Of a stretch of DNA of 64,000 nucleotides, positions 1,619 to 39,236 are shown piece by piece. The position numbers and the translations under genes are program-made. Each line of letters begins with the position of its first letter. The stretch's first letter is position 1. The DNA comes from an uncultured delta proteobacterium (GTDB taxonomy: Bacteria; Myxococcota_A; Polyangia; Fen-1088). The DNA is taken from NCBI GenBank assembly GCA_963796685.1, contig CAWCMR010000025.1, positions 1,760,001 through 1,824,000 of the forward strand, read 5' to 3'. Below the pieces are notes generated by a model that worked only from the letters and a program-made list of their open reading frames with translations, was not told the origin of the DNA and did not search any database.

Positions 1619-1751
1619 GACAGAAACTCCAATCGTATTGGGTGGAACGCATCAAATCATTGTCGACAGGTTGTCCTACAACATGGATCGGCCTGTCGGT
1701 AGGGCGATTTGTCCGAGCAATCGGACACTGCGGGAGGAGTAAACTGGCGAC

Positions 1752-3359
1752 ATGAAGAGAAGCGGGCTCACCCGTTGCATCCGTGTTTCCTCGCCAGGGG
1801 CCGTGTCGCTGGCGATCCTGTGCGGGGTCGTGGCGGCAAGCTGCGTCGCAAGCTCGCAGAAGCCCCCTGCCTCGGGAGGCACGCAGGGAAATGGCGGCGC
1901 GCAATCCGGCGGCGGTACGTCAGGAGCCGGAGGCGTGCAAACGACGGGTGGCTCGACGTCACATGGAGGCGCGCAGGGCGCGGGTGGCTCGTCGTTGTCG
2001 GGCGGCTCGCAAGGCTCGGGTGGTGTCTCGTTCATGGGCGGCTCGACGTCCGGCGGAGGTTCGGGCGGCTCGTCCTCGACCACCTCGAACCGCGATGGCG
2101 CTGTCGATGCACCACTTGGGGCTGGGGGCGATGCCGCCGACGGCACCTCCACGACCGACGTACGCACACAAGCCCCGCGTCCCGACGCCAGCCCGGACTC
2201 GTGCGGGGCTTGGGCGTTGACCAACGGGGTGTGCTGCGCCCAGTACTGCAGCAACGACAACAAGTCCGAGAGCTGCGACAAGTGCGGCGGCCCCGGCTCT
2301 GCTCAGTGCGAGGTGGTCAACGCCAAGGCGTGCACCTCGGGGCAATGGCCGGAGGTGCACTCGGTCAGCGACAATGAAGACTGGCATTACTCGCGCTCGA
2401 CCCACTTCGGAACGGCCCCCACGGGCGCCTGCGCCTTCGGCCTGTACGGCATCTGCTCTACGTCCATGAAGCTCGCCAACACGACCCTGCAAGCGCAGTG
2501 CGATACCTTCTGCAAGGCCTATCCCGACCTGTGCAAGGATCCCGGCAACGTCACCCTGCGCGGGAATTTCGCGGCCCCGCAGGGCAACTACTACACGCAG
2601 TTCTGGTCCAGCCTGCCCGGCGACCTCGACAACTATCTCTCCTGCGGCGAGTGCTTCGAGCTCGAGCGTACCCAGGACGATGGCAGCGAGTACCAGTCCG
2701 GCGCAAGCGGCTACACGCCGCCCATCGTGCTGCAGGTGGCGGACTCGTGTCCGTGCTCGGCCAATTCCAAGTGGTGCTGCGGCTCGGGGCGCGACCACTG
2801 TGGCGAGGTCGAGGGCGTCTTCAAGTACGGGTGTCAGCTTCCGCCGTCGCCGCCGCCACCGCCCGTCGACCACGATCCCCTGCCCAACGAAAGCATCCAC
2901 CTCGATCTCTCGGACATCGCCATGGCGCGACTGCAGACCGGCGACCCCAACGGCACCATCAGCGACGGGGTGATCCCGACCAAGTACAAGCGCGTGCCCT
3001 GCCCGGTGGTGGGCAACATGTACATCTGGCTGCGCCCGAACGCCGGTGCCTACTACTTCGCGCTGACCGTGGTGAACATGGCAGGCTTGGGCTCGGCGGC
3101 CAAGGTCGAGGCGCAGCTTCCCTCCGGGGACTGGGTGGCGCTCCAGCGCGACGGCAACTACAGCCTGTCCCGCCCACAGGAGCGCTTCGGCACGTGGGCC
3201 CTGCCGCAGGGCTATGGTCCCTTCGACCTGCCGGTCACCCTGCGCATCAGCGACGGATCTGGCCGCGCCGTGCTTGCCCCGAACGTCATCAAAGCCTGGG
3301 CGCCCACCGACTCGAGCCAGAGCGAGAACTGGTTCCTCGACACCGGGGTGCAGTTCTAA
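1752..3359 (+). CDS. Swollenin-like (GH45-like DPBB + expansin/CBM63-like) lipoprotein
   Basis: GGAGG RBS, signal peptide ending AASC and a Gly/Ser linker. Cys-rich core carries WHYSRSTHFG, GACAFGLYG, TLRGNFAAP, YLSCGEC, DSCPCSANSKWCCG, HLDLSDIAM, YYFALT, RPQERFG and DTGVQF. Confidence 0.85.
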   Translation: MKRSGLTRCIRVSSPGAVSLAILCGVVAASCVASSQKPPASGGTQGNGGAQSGGGTSGAGGVQTTGGSTSHGGAQGAGGSSLSGGSQGSGGVSFMGGSTSGGGSGGSSSTTSNRDGAVDAPLGAGGDAADGTSTTDVRTQAPRPDASPDSCGAWALTNGVCCAQYCSNDNKSESCDKCGGPGSAQCEVVNAKACTSGQWPEVHSVSDNEDWHYSRSTHFGTAPTGACAFGLYGICSTSMKLANTTLQAQCDTFCKAYPDLCKDPGNVTLRGNFAAPQGNYYTQFWSSLPGDLDNYLSCGECFELERTQDDGSEYQSGASGYTPPIVLQVADSCPCSANSKWCCGSGRDHCGEVEGVFKYGCQLPPSPPPPPVDHDPLPNESIHLDLSDIAMARLQTGDPNGTISDGVIPTKYKRVPCPVVGNMYIWLRPNAGAYYFALTVVNMAGLGSAAKVEAQLPSGDWVALQRDGNYSLSRPQERFGTWALPQGYGPFDLPVTLRISDGSGRAVLAPNVIKAWAPTDSSQSENWFLDTGVQF

Positions 3360-3362
3360 CCA

Positions 3363-3761
3363 TCAACCTTTGCGCAGCAACCGCAGGCCGCAGAGAGCGC
3401 TCAGGGTCTCGAAATCACGATCGTGCTCCAAGACTTCCATGTCGCGCTCAATCGCGATGGCCGCGATGAGACAGTCGACGGTCCCGCGCACGGAGCGTCC
3501 TTTGGATCGGCAGCGCCGAAAGAGGTCGGCGGCATGTTCGTAGGTTTCCGGAAAGACCGGCTCGACGTGTTGGCATGTGGCCAGAAGTCGCTGCAACTCG
3601 GTTGCATGCTTGTCGCCGCGAGCACCCTGCATGACCTCCTGAACGATCACGCCCGTGACGAACACGGGATCCCCGCGTTCGAAGGCGAGGGACAAAATAC
3701 GATCGGAAGGCGTGCCGGTTGCGCGCAACCACGCGATCCACGCTGAGCTATCGACAAGCAT
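3363..3761 (-). CDS. vapC: VapC-family PIN-domain toxin
   Basis: LVDSSAW...QEVMQG...VDCLIAA...HDRDF acidic PIN motifs; directly downstream of a small antitoxin. Confidence 0.9.
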   Translation of the reverse strand: MLVDSSAWIAWLRATGTPSDRILSLAFERGDPVFVTGVIVQEVMQGARGDKHATELQRLLATCQHVEPVFPETYEHAADLFRRCRSKGRSVRGTVDCLIAAIAIERDMEVLEHDRDFETLSALCGLRLLRKG

Positions 3762-3773
3762 GGCACGGTCGCT

Positions 3774-3971
3774 CTAGCGTGCTTTTCGCATCTCGGCGAG
3801 ATTTCCGCTCCAGCCTGATCCGCGAAGCTCGACTGCCAGACGCCGTTGTTCTTCGCGGTTGACCAATTCCTCCAGCGCGCGTGCGAGAATGTCGCGGGTG
3901 GTTCGCCCCCCCGTGAGCTTCTTCGCCCGAGCGAGCATTCGCGTGTCGAGAACGACGTTGGTGCGTTTCAT
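3774..3971 (-). CDS. vapB: VapB-family ribbon-helix-helix antitoxin
   Basis: MKRTNVVLD...ARAKKLTG...ALEELV...WSGNLAEMR (65 aa); GGAGG upstream. It is the 3' part of the 3774..5207 ORF. Confidence 0.88.
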   Translation of the reverse strand: MKRTNVVLDTRMLARAKKLTGGRTTRDILARALEELVNREEQRRLAVELRGSGWSGNLAEMRKAR

Positions 3972-4051: not shown

Positions 4052-5377
4052 TTACGGCCGCCAGGTCACGAACCACAGACGGTGATTGGCGGCCGCGGTG
4101 CTGATGGAAAACTCGCCCCACACCGGCGCGTAGAAGATGGACACGGCGAGCGCAAGACCGATGTAGCCGACAATCCATCTTCCGTGCTTCTTCTCGAGGT
4201 GCGCGGCGAAGCCGGCCAGCATGACCAGCAGGAAGGCGTAGCAGGGCAGGTAGTAGTGGCTGAAGGTGTAGTTGCCCCGCGTGCCGCGGGTCGCGAGCCA
4301 GGGCGCCATGAAGGAGAACCATCCGAGCATCATGAGCAGGGCACCGCGCGTGGTGTCCGCGCCGAGAAAGCCCAGCCAGTAGCGCTTGAAGCGCGAGCGA
4401 ATGGCGATGACCAGCGTGGTGATGGGAAACGCCACCACCAGCAGCGTGGACGTGGCCCAGAAGACGAGATTGCCGACGCTGGACGAGTAGCGCGACTTCA
4501 ACCCCGAGGTGGACAGCTTGATCACGATGGGGTGCATGAGGATGGGCCAGCCGTACCACGGCGAGGTCAGATCGTTGTGGTAGTGCCCGAGATCGAGATG
4601 ATGCTTGTACAGGCCGATGATGACCTTCCAGGTCGAGATCGGATCGCTGGGCTTGCCGGTGAGACGGAGCGCGCCCATCCAGATGAGGGTGTGCACGATG
4701 GGGACCAAGCCCAGCCACAGGACCGAGAAGATAGAAACCCGACGCACCAGCAGGATGGCCACGGCAGCGGGAATGGCGGTCATGACGCCACTCCATTTCA
4801 CGGAGGTGGAAAACCCAATCAGGATGGCCGAGGCGACCACGCCCTTCCAGGTGCGCGCACCCAGCGCAGCCACCATCCCCCACAGCATGAACGAGATCAT
4901 CATCCCGTCGAGCAGACCCGAGCGGGAGTAGGAGATGAAGAAGCCGTCCGCCGCTACGAACGCCGCGGCCATCCAACCTGCGCGCTTGTCGCCAAACAGC
5001 GTCCGGCCAAGCCAGTAGGCCAAGAACACCGTCTGCAACCCGAACAACAGCGGCACGAAGCGCCAGCCCAGGGAGTTGTAGCCGAAGATCAGCATGCCCA
5101 CGGCGATCAGCATCTTGCCCAAGGGCGGGTGGTCGTTGTTGTCGGCGATGGAAAGCGCGTAGTTGTGGGCGTTCTTGACGAAGGGCTCTTCGTCGAAGGT
5201 GAACCACGTCGGCCAGGGAACGCCCTGAATCCGAATCACCACCCCGCCCACGATCATCGCGGCCAAGAATCCGGTGACCCAGCGCTCTGCCACCGACATG
5301 GCCTGCCAGGTCTGGCGCAGTTGCGCGACCTTGCCGCGCAAGATCTCCCCGATTCCTTGGGCGGCGGCAAGCTTCAT
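4052..5377 (-). CDS. Phospholipid-carrier-dependent glycosyltransferase (GT39/PMT-like protein O-mannosyltransferase)
   Basis: FDEEPF, DHPPLGK, SRSGLLD, SVKWSG, SPWYGWP, GNLVFW and FSHYYLP motifs; many TM helices; ATGA overlap with the upstream gene. Confidence 0.85.
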   Translation of the reverse strand: MKLAAAQGIGEILRGKVAQLRQTWQAMSVAERWVTGFLAAMIVGGVVIRIQGVPWPTWFTFDEEPFVKNAHNYALSIADNNDHPPLGKMLIAVGMLIFGYNSLGWRFVPLLFGLQTVFLAYWLGRTLFGDKRAGWMAAAFVAADGFFISYSRSGLLDGMMISFMLWGMVAALGARTWKGVVASAILIGFSTSVKWSGVMTAIPAAVAILLVRRVSIFSVLWLGLVPIVHTLIWMGALRLTGKPSDPISTWKVIIGLYKHHLDLGHYHNDLTSPWYGWPILMHPIVIKLSTSGLKSRYSSSVGNLVFWATSTLLVVAFPITTLVIAIRSRFKRYWLGFLGADTTRGALLMMLGWFSFMAPWLATRGTRGNYTFSHYYLPCYAFLLVMLAGFAAHLEKKHGRWIVGYIGLALAVSIFYAPVWGEFSISTAAANHRLWFVTWRP

Positions 5378-6015
5378 TGGGGAATTACGCAGTCCGTGAG
5401 GTTGCCGACCGCGACGCTTTGATCGACGGGGCTGAAGTTGCCCGTGGCCGACCAACGCAAGGAAACGGTCCTGAGCACCCCGACCACATGGTAGTTGCAC
5501 ACCACGGTGAATCGCTGCGTGGGCAGGGATCCTTGCAGGATAGGCGCCTCCCACAGCCCCGCGGCCAGAAACAGCTCGTTCTTCACGGTGTTGAAGGGCT
5601 GCAGCACGTTCGGATCGGTATCCGGGCTCGCCCACGGCTGGCTGTTGGCGTGGTAGCCGCAGTGGACCGGGCCAAAGGACTTGTCCGACGCGCAGGCCAG
5701 GTTCTTCTTGTCCTCGCGAACCAGCGTCACCTCGATCATCTTGGTCGAGCCGAGGTGCCAGCCCTCGGTCTGTTGCGAGTACTTCTCCTTGTAGCCGGTC
5801 CAGGCCAGGACCAACCAGAGCGCGACCCCCATGCACAGGAAGCCGAACACCGTATAGAGCAGAAGGTTCCTGGGGGGATCCAGCTTGACCTCGGGGACTG
5901 GGGGCGGGGCTTCCGGAGCCGGCGGCGGTTCCGTGCCGGTTGGCGCCGATGTGGACGACGTGTCTGCTGAGGCGACTTTCGCATCGCCTGCCACCTCTTC
6001 AGGCGAAGGACTCAT
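5374..6015 (-). CDS. Hypothetical single-TM membrane-anchored protein, coupled to the PMT gene
   Basis: Pro-rich N-terminus, one TM helix, extracytoplasmic domain with 4 Cys; its stop overlaps the PMT start. Confidence 0.7.
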   Translation of the reverse strand: MSPSPEEVAGDAKVASADTSSTSAPTGTEPPPAPEAPPPVPEVKLDPPRNLLLYTVFGFLCMGVALWLVLAWTGYKEKYSQQTEGWHLGSTKMIEVTLVREDKKNLACASDKSFGPVHCGYHANSQPWASPDTDPNVLQPFNTVKNELFLAAGLWEAPILQGSLPTQRFTVVCNYHVVGVLRTVSLRWSATGNFSPVDQSVAVGNLTDCVIPQ

Positions 6016-38126: not shown

Positions 38127-39236
38127 ATGAGGGTGAGAGCCGAAGGCCCGAGGGGCGTGCAGGGTGAGAGGCGGGTCCCGAGAGCTCGGCGGCTCCCCAC
38201 GCGACTAGGGTTTACGGCCCTGCTGGTCATGACCGCATGCAACGGCGCTTCGTCCGGCCGCGGCGGGGGCGGTGCGACGGGAAGCGGTGGCGCGGATGCT
38301 TCGGGTGGGACTGGGGGTGGCTCCGGGCAATCGGGCGGGGTGGCGGGCTCGACAGGGATCACGGGCGCGGGCGGCGTTTCGGCCAGCGGCGGCGCCGGTG
38401 GCACGGGGGGCGCGAAGTCCGCGGGTGGTACAGGTGGAGCTGGTATCGTGATCGGTATCGGCGGCTCGCCGGGAGCCGGCGGCGCGGCCACGGCGGTCGA
38501 CGGCGGCGCGGGCGCACAGCCCTACAAGGGGGTGGCCAACTGTACCTGCGCCGAGCGCACGAGCCTGAAGGTCTCCTGGTACTACAACTGGACGGTGAGC
38601 CCGGACAATTGCAGCACGGGCGGCGAGTTCGTGCCCATGTATTCGAACCACCCGAACAACAACCCGACGCCCGATGCCGTGGCCGCGGAGATCACCAAGC
38701 TGGTCAACGCCGGCTACAAGTACGTGCTCGGCTTCAACGAGCCCAACAAGAGCGACCAGGCGAACATGACCGTCGCCGACGCCCTTGCGCTGTGGCCGGC
38801 CATGACCAGCAATCCGAATATTCTGGTGGGCAGCCCGGCCACCTCGGCCGACGGACAATCGTGGTTCAACGACTTCTACACCCAGGCCAGGGCGGCCAAC
38901 CTGCGCATCGATTTCATCGCTCTCCACTGGTACGGCTGGAACAGCGGCTCGTGCGACGCCAAGGCCGCCAACCTGGAAAGCTACATCAAATGGGCGGAAG
39001 GCCTGCCCGGCAACCTGCCGCTGTGGCTGACCGAATGGGGCTGCATGAACGCCAGCAATCCCGACGTGGCGACGGTGCAAGGCTTCTACACCGGCGCGGT
39101 GGCCATGTTCGCCAAGCACCCGCGCCTGCAACGCTACGCCTGGTACCAGTGGGATCCCAACAACGAGCTCACCAACAGCGACCACTCGCTGACCCAGCTC
39201 GGAACCGTGTACGCCTCGCAGCCTTCGACGCGTTGA
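38127..39236 (+). CDS. GH128-like (putative beta-1,3-glucanase) lipoprotein with Gly-rich linker
   Basis: MTAC lipobox; SWYYNW, EFVPM, LGFNEP, DFIALHWY, LWLTEWG and RYAWY motifs. Start codon uncertain. Confidence 0.82.
   Translation: MRVRAEGPRGVQGERRVPRARRLPTRLGFTALLVMTACNGASSGRGGGGATGSGGADASGGTGGGSGQSGGVAGSTGITGAGGVSASGGAGGTGGAKSAGGTGGAGIVIGIGGSPGAGGAATAVDGGAGAQPYKGVANCTCAERTSLKVSWYYNWTVSPDNCSTGGEFVPMYSNHPNNNPTPDAVAAEITKLVNAGYKYVLGFNEPNKSDQANMTVADALALWPAMTSNPNILVGSPATSADGQSWFNDFYTQARAANLRIDFIALHWYGWNSGSCDAKAANLESYIKWAEGLPGNLPLWLTEWGCMNASNPDVATVQGFYTGAVAMFAKHPRLQRYAWYQWDPNNELTNSDHSLTQLGTVYASQPSTR

Follow-up and report, generated by a model that had tools for sequence, protein, structure and literature searches.

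The window analysed here, a stretch of 64,000 nucleotides from contig CAWCMR010000025.1 of an uncultured delta proteobacterium (positions 1,760,001 to 1,824,000), carries a gene that is almost certainly a bacterial member of the swollenin family. The core of its product aligns from end to end with fungal swollenins of the Trichoderma SWO1 type, is modelled with the two-domain fold of expansins, and is preceded by a lipobox and a long Gly/Ser-rich linker. The explanation that accounts best for the observations as a whole, and one that we consider quite probable, is that this is a native swollenin-family gene of SWO1 type in an uncultured, cellulase-rich Polyangiaceae-type bacterium, where its product would act as a tethered loosening protein.

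Family identity

Aligned with BLASTP, the window protein shares 216 of 405 positions (53% identity, E 6e-154) with a CBM1-bearing protein of Trichoderma camerunense (P0269) and 216 of 404 (53%, E 1e-145) with the 'swollenin Swo' of Talaromyces pinophilus (P0273). Both alignments are colinear and run from residue 138 or 139 to the final residue, and their start covers an N-terminal Cys-rich module (SCGAW..VCC..YCSNDNKSESC) that is shared with the fungal swollenins. An earlier note on this DNA, made from the sequence alone, had held that the core follows SWO1 motif by motif, and every motif listed there is present in the Trichoderma alignment: SCGxW, VCC, YCxND..SESC and PEVH.V..NE.WHYSRSTHFG in the N-terminal part; TLRGNFAAP.G.YY.QFWSSLPG.LDNYLSCGEC, DSCPCSANSKWCCG and SIHLDLSDIAM.RLQ in the middle; and YIWLR, YYFALT, SRPQER.G and D.GVQF towards the C terminus. 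As read from these alignments, the likeness of the core to SWO1-type swollenins is far beyond chance, and the best named matches are fungal swollenins, not ordinary bacterial EXLX expansins or proteins of glycoside hydrolase family 45 (GH45).

When the core alone was compared by BLASTP, with loci covering fewer than 360 query residues excluded, identity was 60-69% to other bacterial proteins (12 rows), 50-56% to Ascomycota (23 rows), 47-56% to Chytridiomycota (10 rows), 54-55% to Neocallimastigomycota-like proteins (5 rows) and 31-33% to Mastigamoeba (3 rows). Among 1.84 billion cluster representatives, searched exhaustively, 116 proteins matched at E<=1e-3. Beyond the close family, the full-length relatives are eukaryotic and comprise proteins of the chytrids Entophlyctis and Physocladia and three of Mastigamoeba balamuthi. 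One chytrid relative carries the UniRef name 'Swollenin', and another search, with the chytrid relative P0129 as query, led to named ascomycete swollenins. Swollenins had been described in the earlier note as ascomycete proteins distinct from bacterial EXLX; the distinction stands, but the restriction to ascomycetes does not, given that chytrid and Neocallimastigomycota-type members exist.

Set beside SWO1-type proteins (P0269, P0273, P0264 of T. asperellum and P0274 of Penicillium oxalicum), the whole core of about 390 residues is colinear at 50-56% identity. Common to both sides are the N-terminal Cys-rich module, an enlarged expansin domain 1 (D1) with SRSTHFG, DSCPCSANSKWCCG and SIHLDLSD, and a domain 2 (D2) with YIWLR, YYFALT and SRPQER. 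Where the fungal proteins have CBM1 and an O-glycosylated Ser/Thr linker, the window protein has instead a signal peptide of bacterial type with a lipobox, followed by a Gly/Ser linker; unlike them it also carries a Pro-rich insertion of 12-15 residues ahead of the HLD motif, and its host is a bacterium. The absence of CBM1, already remarked on in the earlier note, was borne out by a Pfam scan, in which CBM_1 was not detected in the window protein. Several fungal family members (P0255, P0126, P0257 and P0305) likewise lack PF00734 (CBM1), which therefore appears as an accessory and not as a requirement of the core. The same scan gave no fn3 match to the N-terminal Cys-rich module; in the available text of three papers the extra module ahead of D1 in swollenins is called fibronectin-III-like (PMC12954947, PMC12779228, PMC12632131).

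General expansin models capture the protein poorly. Pfam Expansin_C matches residues 430-513 below threshold (E 1.3e-3, 19.3 bits, cut-off 24.6), the NCBIfam EXLX1 model NF041144 matches only residues 376-474 (E 1.2e-5, 24.8 bits, cut-off 100), and a search of PDB sequences with the single protein gave sub-threshold expansin and GH45 hints (best E 0.017). Because Expansin_C and EXLX1 stay below their cut-offs, the protein was assigned to its family by pairwise and profile similarity together with the fold.

Bacterial relatives and their distribution

In a word-indexed search, 340 proteins (90% clusters) came up at E<=1e-3, and the 120 relatives listed among them, at 65-97% identity, are unnamed or 'hypothetical', two with names of Polyangiaceae metagenome-assembled genomes (MAGs). 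Names on bacterial proteins among the matches listed are 'hypothetical protein', 'Expansin C-terminal domain', 'chitodextrinase' and 'expansin (peptidoglycan-binding protein)'. In prokaryote contigs, searched with one genome for each of 185,579 species, there are 38 loci, on contigs of up to 1.56 Mb; 28 are labelled Myxococcales, Polyangiaceae, Polyangiales or delta-proteobacterium, five 'Proteobacteria', four Spirochaetales and one Clostridiales. GC content is 0.29-0.42 in the five Spirochaetales- or Clostridiales-labelled loci and 0.57-0.76 in the rest, and it is on record labels and GC content that a separate origin of the hosts of CBM3- and dockerin-type proteins rests.

Three delivery formats occur among the bacterial proteins: a lipobox with a Gly/Ser linker; a signal peptide with CBM_3 or CBM_2, Fn3 and sometimes CBM_X2 (P0090, P0121, P0109); and, in the low-GC group, a signal peptide with a type-I dockerin (P0112, P0124). 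Fungal members carry CBM_1 (P0129, P0269) or three CBM_10 (P0313). The 1130-residue P0131, cut at a contig end, joins a GH30-like module, Big_2, CBM3, CBM_X2 and Fn3 to the swollenin core. In the low-GC MAGs labelled Clostridiales or Spirochaetales (L025, L027, L030, L032, L033; P0112, P0124, P0321), an N-terminal type-I dockerin stands ahead of a swollenin-type core; these dockerin-bearing proteins form a clade of their own (support 100) and are candidate cellulosome-borne swollenins.

A cellulosomal expansin is reportedly known from Clostridium. The dockerin-bearing relatives (P0112, P0124, P0321; L027, L030, L032, L033) share with cellulosomal, dockerin-bearing expansin-like proteins the principle of bringing a loosening protein to cellulolytic machinery, but their core is of swollenin and not of EXLX type, whereas the window protein has a predicted lipid anchor and no dockerin. 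A dockerin-containing expansin-like protein of Neocallimastix is mentioned in the available text of PMC12954947.

Within the window's GTDB family, which is also the whole order, the gene was found in 23 of 89 genomes. All positives fall in two of the 19 genera, one with 11 of 12 genomes plus the window's own and the other with 11 of 11, and no swollenin gene was found in the other 66 family genomes, from 17 genera. None of 400 other genomes of the phylum (70 families) gave a match at E<=1e-30, a result to be read as 'not found' and not as 'absent', since the sampled genomes are mostly incomplete MAGs. GH6 is present in 64 of the 89 family genomes; of these, 22 are among the 23 with the swollenin gene and 42 among the 66 without it.

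Phylogeny and direction of transfer

A tree of 87 rows and 401 columns was computed with IQ-TREE (LG+C20 PMSF, quick search, Shimodaira-Hasegawa-like approximate likelihood ratio support) and rooted on the Mastigamoeba-type relatives, at 31-33% identity the nearest outgroup found; rows with an incomplete core (unk_P0154, unk_P0178, two Talaromyces marneffei fragments, Aspergillus lentulus_b and L005) were dropped. One of the outgroup proteins, P0138 of Mastigamoeba balamuthi (743 residues), consists of two tandem swollenin-like cores. The swollenin clade proper, comprising the window protein and the fungal swollenins without the Mastigamoeba type, has a support of 96. Ascomycota and Chytridiomycota form a clade (support 100) that excludes bacteria, and the Neocallimastigomycota-like rows form another with the unlabelled P0128 (support 100). 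The 44 bacterial rows split into several groups with short branches, which together form a basal polytomy. The Ascomycota are monophyletic (99) and placed among chytrid lineages; this pattern, in the tree and among the 120 matches listed, hints at patchy inheritance or fungus-to-fungus transfer.

In approximately unbiased (AU) tests, bacteria as one clade were not rejected (p=0.55, the constrained tree being 1.9 log-likelihood units better), nor were fungi as one clade (p=0.40). Bacteria and Ascomycota as one clade were 45 log-likelihood units worse, with p=0.025, a value that is only indicative because this group was named after the tree had been seen. A character independent of the tree points the same way. 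The loop between YGC and SxHLDL is Pro-rich and 17-20 residues long in 44 of 45 bacterial rows and has five residues in all 38 fungal rows (37 by regular expression, one by eye); in the outgroup the loop at this place is different, with about 12 residues. The window protein has 19 residues between YGC and SIHLDL, so that the insertion proposed in the earlier note is real. The sole bacterial row without it is P0271 (668 residues; signal peptide, CBM3, Fn3 and core), which stands alone at the base of the ingroup. From the tree, the AU tests and the loop we conclude that the bacterial and fungal branches separated long ago, with no recent pick-up from a Trichoderma-like fungus, in agreement with the old cross-kingdom transfer, in either direction, that had been proposed from the sequence.

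As to direction, transfer from a eukaryote to a bacterium is weakly favoured, because the family is rare in bacteria, occurs in three fungal phyla and has a eukaryotic outgroup. The reverse, in which swollenin arose in bacteria and passed to fungi, possibly repeatedly, with the anaerobic fungi served apart from chytrids and ascomycetes, is a less probable but serious alternative. It draws on the short branches of the bacterial rows at the base of the swollenin clade, on the free tree, where the Neocallimastigomycota-like clade adjoins a bacterial row (support 85) and P0271 is basal, on the YGCPIPKDSIHLDL-type loop common to P0271, which lacks the insertion, and the anaerobic-fungal rows, and on the patchy look of the fungal side, where the named fungi among the 120 matches listed belong only to Ascomycota, Chytridiomycota and Neocallimastigomycota. 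It is opposed by the eukaryotic nature of the nearest outgroup found (Mastigamoeba), by the sparse bacterial occurrence set out above (38 loci in 185,579 species; two of 19 family genera; none of 400 other genomes of the phylum) and by fungal monophyly, which the AU test did not reject. Dense disulfides, more typical of eukaryotic secreted proteins, count against a bacterial origin as well.

Predicted fold and functional residues

An AlphaFold2 model built on a 41-sequence alignment (mean predicted local distance difference test, pLDDT, 87.8; predicted template modelling score 0.88) shows a two-domain expansin fold with a D1 barrel and a D2 sandwich; the lowest pLDDT values, 61-69, lie around the Pro-rich loop. 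Searched with Foldseek against the PDB, its ten best matches are all two-domain expansins (E 4e-13 to 8e-10, template modelling score (TMt) 0.61-0.76), led by maize EXPB1 (2hcz, E 4e-13) and followed by Phl p 1 and by expansins of Clavibacter, Talaromyces, cotton, Bacillus, Xanthomonas and Streptomyces, at 12-17% identity. GH45 enzymes come next (E 6e-5 and weaker), and no swollenin was among the solved structures searched.

The family profile gives the same picture, matching EXPB1 at 7e-13 and Phl p 1 at 8e-12. In it, SIHLDLSD aligns with the HFD motif of EXPB1, TlEXLX1 and the Clavibacter expansin, SRSTHFG with the conserved Thr motif of solved expansins, and D2 with the D2 of EXPB1, Phl p 1 and bacterial expansins, the 'YYF' of the window protein falling on the aromatic pair of the latter. 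The D1 groove motifs are all present (the Thr of T-x-[FY]-G, the Asp of VxD-x-CP and the Asp of H-[FL]-D), and T217 (SRSTHFG), D331 (VADSCPC) and H383/D385 (SIHLDLSD) are invariant in 41 of 41 aligned sequences. Taken together, the sub-threshold models, the fold and the motifs therefore make the window protein a member of the expansin superfamily of the enlarged, Cys-rich swollenin type and not of the EXLX type.

D1 also resembles the barrel of GH45 enzymes of subfamilies B and C (EG27II, 5xbu; PcCel45A, 3x2j; E 6e-5 to 4e-4), with a local sequence match of DSCPCSANSKWC in the window protein to TNACPINGNEEWC. It is conceivable, if unlikely, that the core is mainly a low-activity GH45-like glycoside hydrolase acting on beta-glucan or amorphous cellulose and not a non-lytic loosener. 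The equivalent of the GH45-type acid, D385 (HLD), and D331 are invariant, the GH45 structures are significant fold matches (5xbu E 6e-5, 3x2j E 9e-5), and sugar release by the fungal swollenin TlSWO is reported in the available part of PMC8039133. SWO1 hydrolytic activity, described as weak in PMC12954947, can be cited on either side. Against a hydrolase stand the far better matches to expansins (E 4e-13 versus 6e-5; TMt 0.6-0.76 versus 0.45-0.50). The window protein has a D2, which GH45 enzymes lack.

Gene architecture and lipoprotein signals

An intronless open reading frame (ORF) with ribosome-binding site, probable lipobox, Gly/Ser linker and Cys-rich core, as the earlier note had laid it out, was recovered in full from the ORF list and translation (Table 1). 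The frame opens with ATG and encodes 535 residues. Its N terminus, MKRSGLTRCIRVSSPGAVSLAILCGVVAAS|C31, has a charged n-region and an uncharged h-region before the lipobox-like VAASC; the linker consists of 113 residues, among them 35 Gly, 21 Ser, 12 Ala and 12 Thr, and the core of 391 residues (145-535) contains 22 Cys. GC content is 0.677 in the ORF and 0.649 in the window, and at third codon positions (GC3) it is 0.90 in the core and 0.89 in the adjacent class-II aldolase gene; the composition is without sign of recent import. A scan for sigma-70 promoters and intrinsic terminators gave 0 sites each (0.3 and 1.0 in shuffles) and is uninformative.

Table 1. Features of the swollenin gene and of its surroundings (window positions unless marked otherwise)
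Feature	Position	Strand	Remarks
Shine-Dalgarno-like GGGAGGAG	1732..1739	+	12 nt before ATG; read from sequence, putative
Swollenin-family gene	1752..3359	+	535 residues + TAA; 53% identity to named fungal swollenins
Signal peptide, residues 1-30	1752..1841	+	K/R-rich n-region, hydrophobic h-region; sequence and rule-based scan
Lipobox VAAS|C	1830..1844	+	Cys31, predicted lipidated first residue of the mature protein
Low-complexity Gly/Ser/Thr/Ala linker, residues 32-144	1845..2183	+	Predicted flexible tether; composition
N-terminal Cys-rich module of core, residues 145-204	2184..2363	+	SCGAW..VCC..YCSNDNKSESC; approximate boundaries; pLDDT 78-92
Enlarged expansin domain 1, residues ~205-403	2364..2960	+	GH45-like double-psi beta-barrel; Foldseek and profile alignment
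Pro-rich loop QLPPSPPPPPVDHDPLPNE, residues 362-380	2835..2891	+	Bacterial-clade insertion directly before HLD motif
Expansin domain 2, residues ~404-535	2961..3356	+	CBM63-like beta-sandwich; YIWLR and YYF aromatic pair; pLDDT mostly >90
PIN-domain (VapC-like) toxin	3363-3761	-	Convergent with swollenin gene
VapB antitoxin	3774-3968	-	Convergent with swollenin gene
Protein O-mannosyltransferase (PMT)-family homologue	4052-5836	-	0.7 kb downstream of swollenin gene
Glyco_hydro_cc protein (L067)	38127-39233	+	Lipobox and linker; within window
GH12 protein	1-296, continuing left (G000:C25:1759316-1760296; L042:5316-6296)	-	Pfam 2.7e-22; lipobox and linker
RCC1-repeat protein	L042:1-2097 (G000:C25:1754001-1756097)	-	Lipobox-like LLAAPGC N terminus, Cys-rich middle; ~4 kb left of window

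Lipoboxes were scored with our own implementation of a PS51257-style rule (charged n-region, uncharged h-region and [LIVMFWSTAG](2)-[LIVMFYSTAGCQ]-[AGS]-C within the first ~45 residues), which VAAS|C31 passes. The strict rule is satisfied by 56 of 107 close homologues with an N terminus and by none of 28 fungal controls; across the genome, 139 of 1337 coding-like frames pass it. A ..[AGS]C box stands directly before the linker in 22 of 29 high-GC loci and in none of five low-GC loci, as counted in the first 90 residues of the longest upstream ORF for the 29 high-GC loci matching to the core start, several of the upstream frames being over-long. In lipobox-bearing homologues 72-201 residues precede the core, with the CBM2-bearing P0121 (354 residues) as the exception. 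The conservation of the box supports the lipoprotein reading of the earlier note, and the window protein is probably a lipoprotein; lipidation would be at Cys31, and an outer-membrane or surface location may follow. The absence of Lys at +2 would fit a Myxococcus sorting rule.

A probable tethered carbohydrate-active set

The swollenin gene does not stand alone in its architecture. The genome has 11 GH5, six GH9 and five GH6 matches, and 13 of these 22 pass the lipobox rule, compared with 139 of 1337 coding-like frames (10%); a lipobox followed by a linker, defined by the same rule genome-wide as at least 80% G/S/T/A/P/Q/N over the next 60 residues, is found in six of the 22 and in 32 of 1337 frames (2.4%). 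These counts include paralogues, which are not independent, and are given without a p-value. A carbohydrate-active module is present in 21 of the 32 lipobox-plus-linker proteins (loci including L043-L069): the swollenin, GH3, two GH5, GH8, GH9, two GH12, two GH16, GH18, GH28, GH30-like, GH53, two arabinofuranosidases, two 'Glyco_hydro_cc', a pectate lyase, a rhamnogalacturonan lyase and CBM9. The other 11 are two DUF4215 proteins, three arylsulfotransferase-like ones and six without a Pfam family. One GH12 protein lies next to the swollenin on the far side of the aldolase gene, the only gene between them, its start (~296) being 1.45 kb from that of the swollenin; with MRSVVLVLALVAAATS|C followed by a Gly/Ser/Thr linker, its N terminus has the same design.

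The most economical reading of these frames would be that the bacterium presents plant-wall-degrading proteins on lipid anchors with flexible tethers, and that the swollenin core has been fitted into this host-wide format, which would replace the CBM1 and linker of the fungal proteins. Sus-like lipoprotein glycoside hydrolases and glycan-binding proteins of Bacteroidota likewise carry carbohydrate-active modules on an N-terminal lipidated Cys, as predicted here. To our knowledge, long Gly/Ser linkers and a swollenin module are not features of Sus-like systems. A SusC/SusD-type setting was not noticed in this genome, no search aimed at it having been made.

The composition of the set also bears on what the swollenin might act upon. 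Myxobacteria are predators, and the tethered format carries two GH16 proteins, a GH18 chitinase-family protein and a beta-glucan-related protein, so one may ask whether a swollenin tethered in this way helps the cell to adhere to or attack the cellulose walls of oomycetes or algae, or the beta-glucan walls of fungi, as its prey or partners, or to remodel exopolysaccharide of its own, instead of acting on plant-litter cellulose. Adhesion has a precedent in the Trichoderma swollenin that promotes root attachment, according to the available part of PMC13524027. We regard this as quite improbable: most of the set is directed at plant walls (GH5, GH8, GH9, GH12, GH28, GH53, pectate and rhamnogalacturonan lyases, arabinofuranosidases), 22 of 23 swollenin-positive genomes have GH6, and relatives carry the cellulose-binding CBM_3 and CBM_2.

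Genomic residence and competing identities

The window sits in a 2.12-Mb contig of a 7.3-Mb genome of 26 contigs, in which the swollenin gene is single-copy. Its neighbours encode a class-II fructose-bisphosphate aldolase, a PIN/VapB pair, a PMT-family glycosyltransferase, a protein with an FGE-sulfatase domain and a PAS protein. The PMT homologue lies close to a gene whose product has a Ser/Thr/Gly linker, and was considered as a clue to O-glycosylation of that linker; this was rejected, as adjacency without conservation in related loci is probably coincidence.

That the gene is an ordinary bacterial EXLX-type expansin with merely patchy similarity to SWO1 is highly improbable. Weak Expansin_C and EXLX1 matches (E 1.3e-3 and 1.2e-5) and the presence of expansins in 22 of 26 myxobacterial species, as stated in the part of bioRxiv 10.1101/637728 available, could be adduced for it. 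EXLX1 expansins (Bacillus subtilis YoaJ, PDB 3d30; Clavibacter, Xanthomonas, Streptomyces) do share the two-domain fold (Foldseek E 7e-11 to 8e-10), with a double-psi beta-barrel D1, a CBM63-like D2 and conserved Thr and Asp motif positions that align with the window protein. The identity to them is only 12-17%, however, the core of 391 residues is about twice as long as the ~200 residues of solved expansins and has 22 Cys, NF041144 gives 24.8 bits where 100 are required, and the full-length colinear identity of 53% is to fungal swollenins; the model score, these alignments and the low identity to solved expansins refute the EXLX identity. A separate weak EXLX1-like locus exists elsewhere in the same genome (G000:C20:62739-63293, + strand, L040; 53.6 bits, below the cut-off of 100) and may be a divergent ordinary expansin beside the swollenin.

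That fungal DNA was binned or assembled by mistake into a bacterial MAG, a thought suggested by the fungal nature of the closest named relatives and by the 6.5% estimated contamination of this MAG, is refuted for practical purposes by an intronless ORF inside a 2.12-Mb contig among aldolase, VapBC and PAS genes, by GC3 like that of the neighbours, by a bacterial lipobox, by orthologues in 22 of 88 other family genomes and on contigs of up to 1.56 Mb, and by relatives fused to CBM_3, CBM_2 or Dockerin_1.

Discussion

We propose that the swollenin works as follows. The precursor would be exported by Sec, modified with diacylglycerol and cleaved at Cys31 (VAAS|C) to give a lipoprotein anchored in a membrane, probably the outer one, where it may be exposed at the surface. 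The disordered Gly/Ser/Thr/Ala linker of ~113 residues would extend the disulfide-rich core of 391 residues away from the cell, where it may bind cellulose or beta-glucan through the D1 groove (T217, D331, D385) and the aromatic platform of D2, and loosen or amorphise the substrate, perhaps also hydrolysing it weakly, as fungal swollenins are reported to do; the loosened material would then be attacked by the cell's own tethered glycoside hydrolases. The gene itself would have been brought into bacteria, or out of them, by an old inter-kingdom transfer. To a cell-associated role in loosening cellulose or beta-glucan, as distinct from membership of the family, we assign a moderate probability.

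Several observations pull away from this picture. Neither the Pfam Expansin_C nor the EXLX1 model reaches its cut-off. The strict lipobox rule is failed by 51 of 107 homologues, many of them with a box visible behind a called start that is too short (MAAGC at residue 5, for example), and the lipobox of the window protein is not a textbook one, having Ala instead of Leu at -3. The CBM3- and dockerin-type relatives are ordinary secreted proteins, sequence does not tell whether a lipoprotein is exposed at the surface, and a protein with 22 Cys has to be folded oxidatively in the periplasm. The swollenin gene does not lie in a cellulase operon, and in the 38 related loci the aldolase gene is adjacent in two (L003, L026), while neither the PIN nor the PMT gene is adjacent in any. 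Because GH6 also occurs in 42 of the 66 swollenin-negative genomes of the family, the swollenin is to be seen as an add-on in an already cellulolytic lineage and not as something its cellulolytic set requires. Finally, the outgroup rows are long-branched, and the topology does not give the direction of transfer, neither bacterial nor fungal monophyly being rejected.

In the literature searched, swollenins figure as fungal accessory proteins for cellulose 'amorphogenesis', and all functional work there concerns fungal proteins. They are treated as fungal in the available text of bioRxiv 10.1101/637728, PMC5072189, PMC8039133, PMC12632131, PMC12954947 and PMC12779228, and the phrase 'bacterial swollenins' in PMC8039133 refers loosely to bacterial expansins. 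Full-text literature searches, whose scope did not extend to key subscription reviews and supplements, turned up no account of a swollenin orthologue from bacteria; prior characterisation of such orthologues, which the earlier note had allowed for, thus did not come to light. Relative to the literature searched, the novelty is that a known protein family turns up in a kingdom new to it, where it has new modules for its delivery and a clade-specific insertion.

This changes the evolutionary picture: bacteria, chytrids, ascomycetes and anaerobic fungi all stand at roughly the same distance from each other. One and the same core is delivered by interchangeable modules suited to the host. Aerobic fungi have CBM1 for this and anaerobic fungi CBM10; in bacteria the part is taken by CBM3, CBM2, a type-I dockerin or a predicted lipid anchor with its tether. 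A more far-reaching view, which we hold to be doubtful at present, is that the family has a large old bacterial branch that may have donated the fungal genes (to anaerobic fungi and to chytrids and ascomycetes), and that the swollenin here is part of an undescribed cell-surface apparatus for plant-wall degradation, in which dozens of glycoside hydrolases and lyases and the swollenin would each sit on a lipid anchor and a long Gly/Ser tether. The bacterial swollenins also offer intronless variants, presumably free of fungal-type glycosylation, for biochemistry and structural work. For the organism itself, the set of carbohydrate-active proteins that combine a lipobox with a linker points to contact-dependent degradation of plant polymers by uncultured myxobacteria-like organisms of soil and peat.

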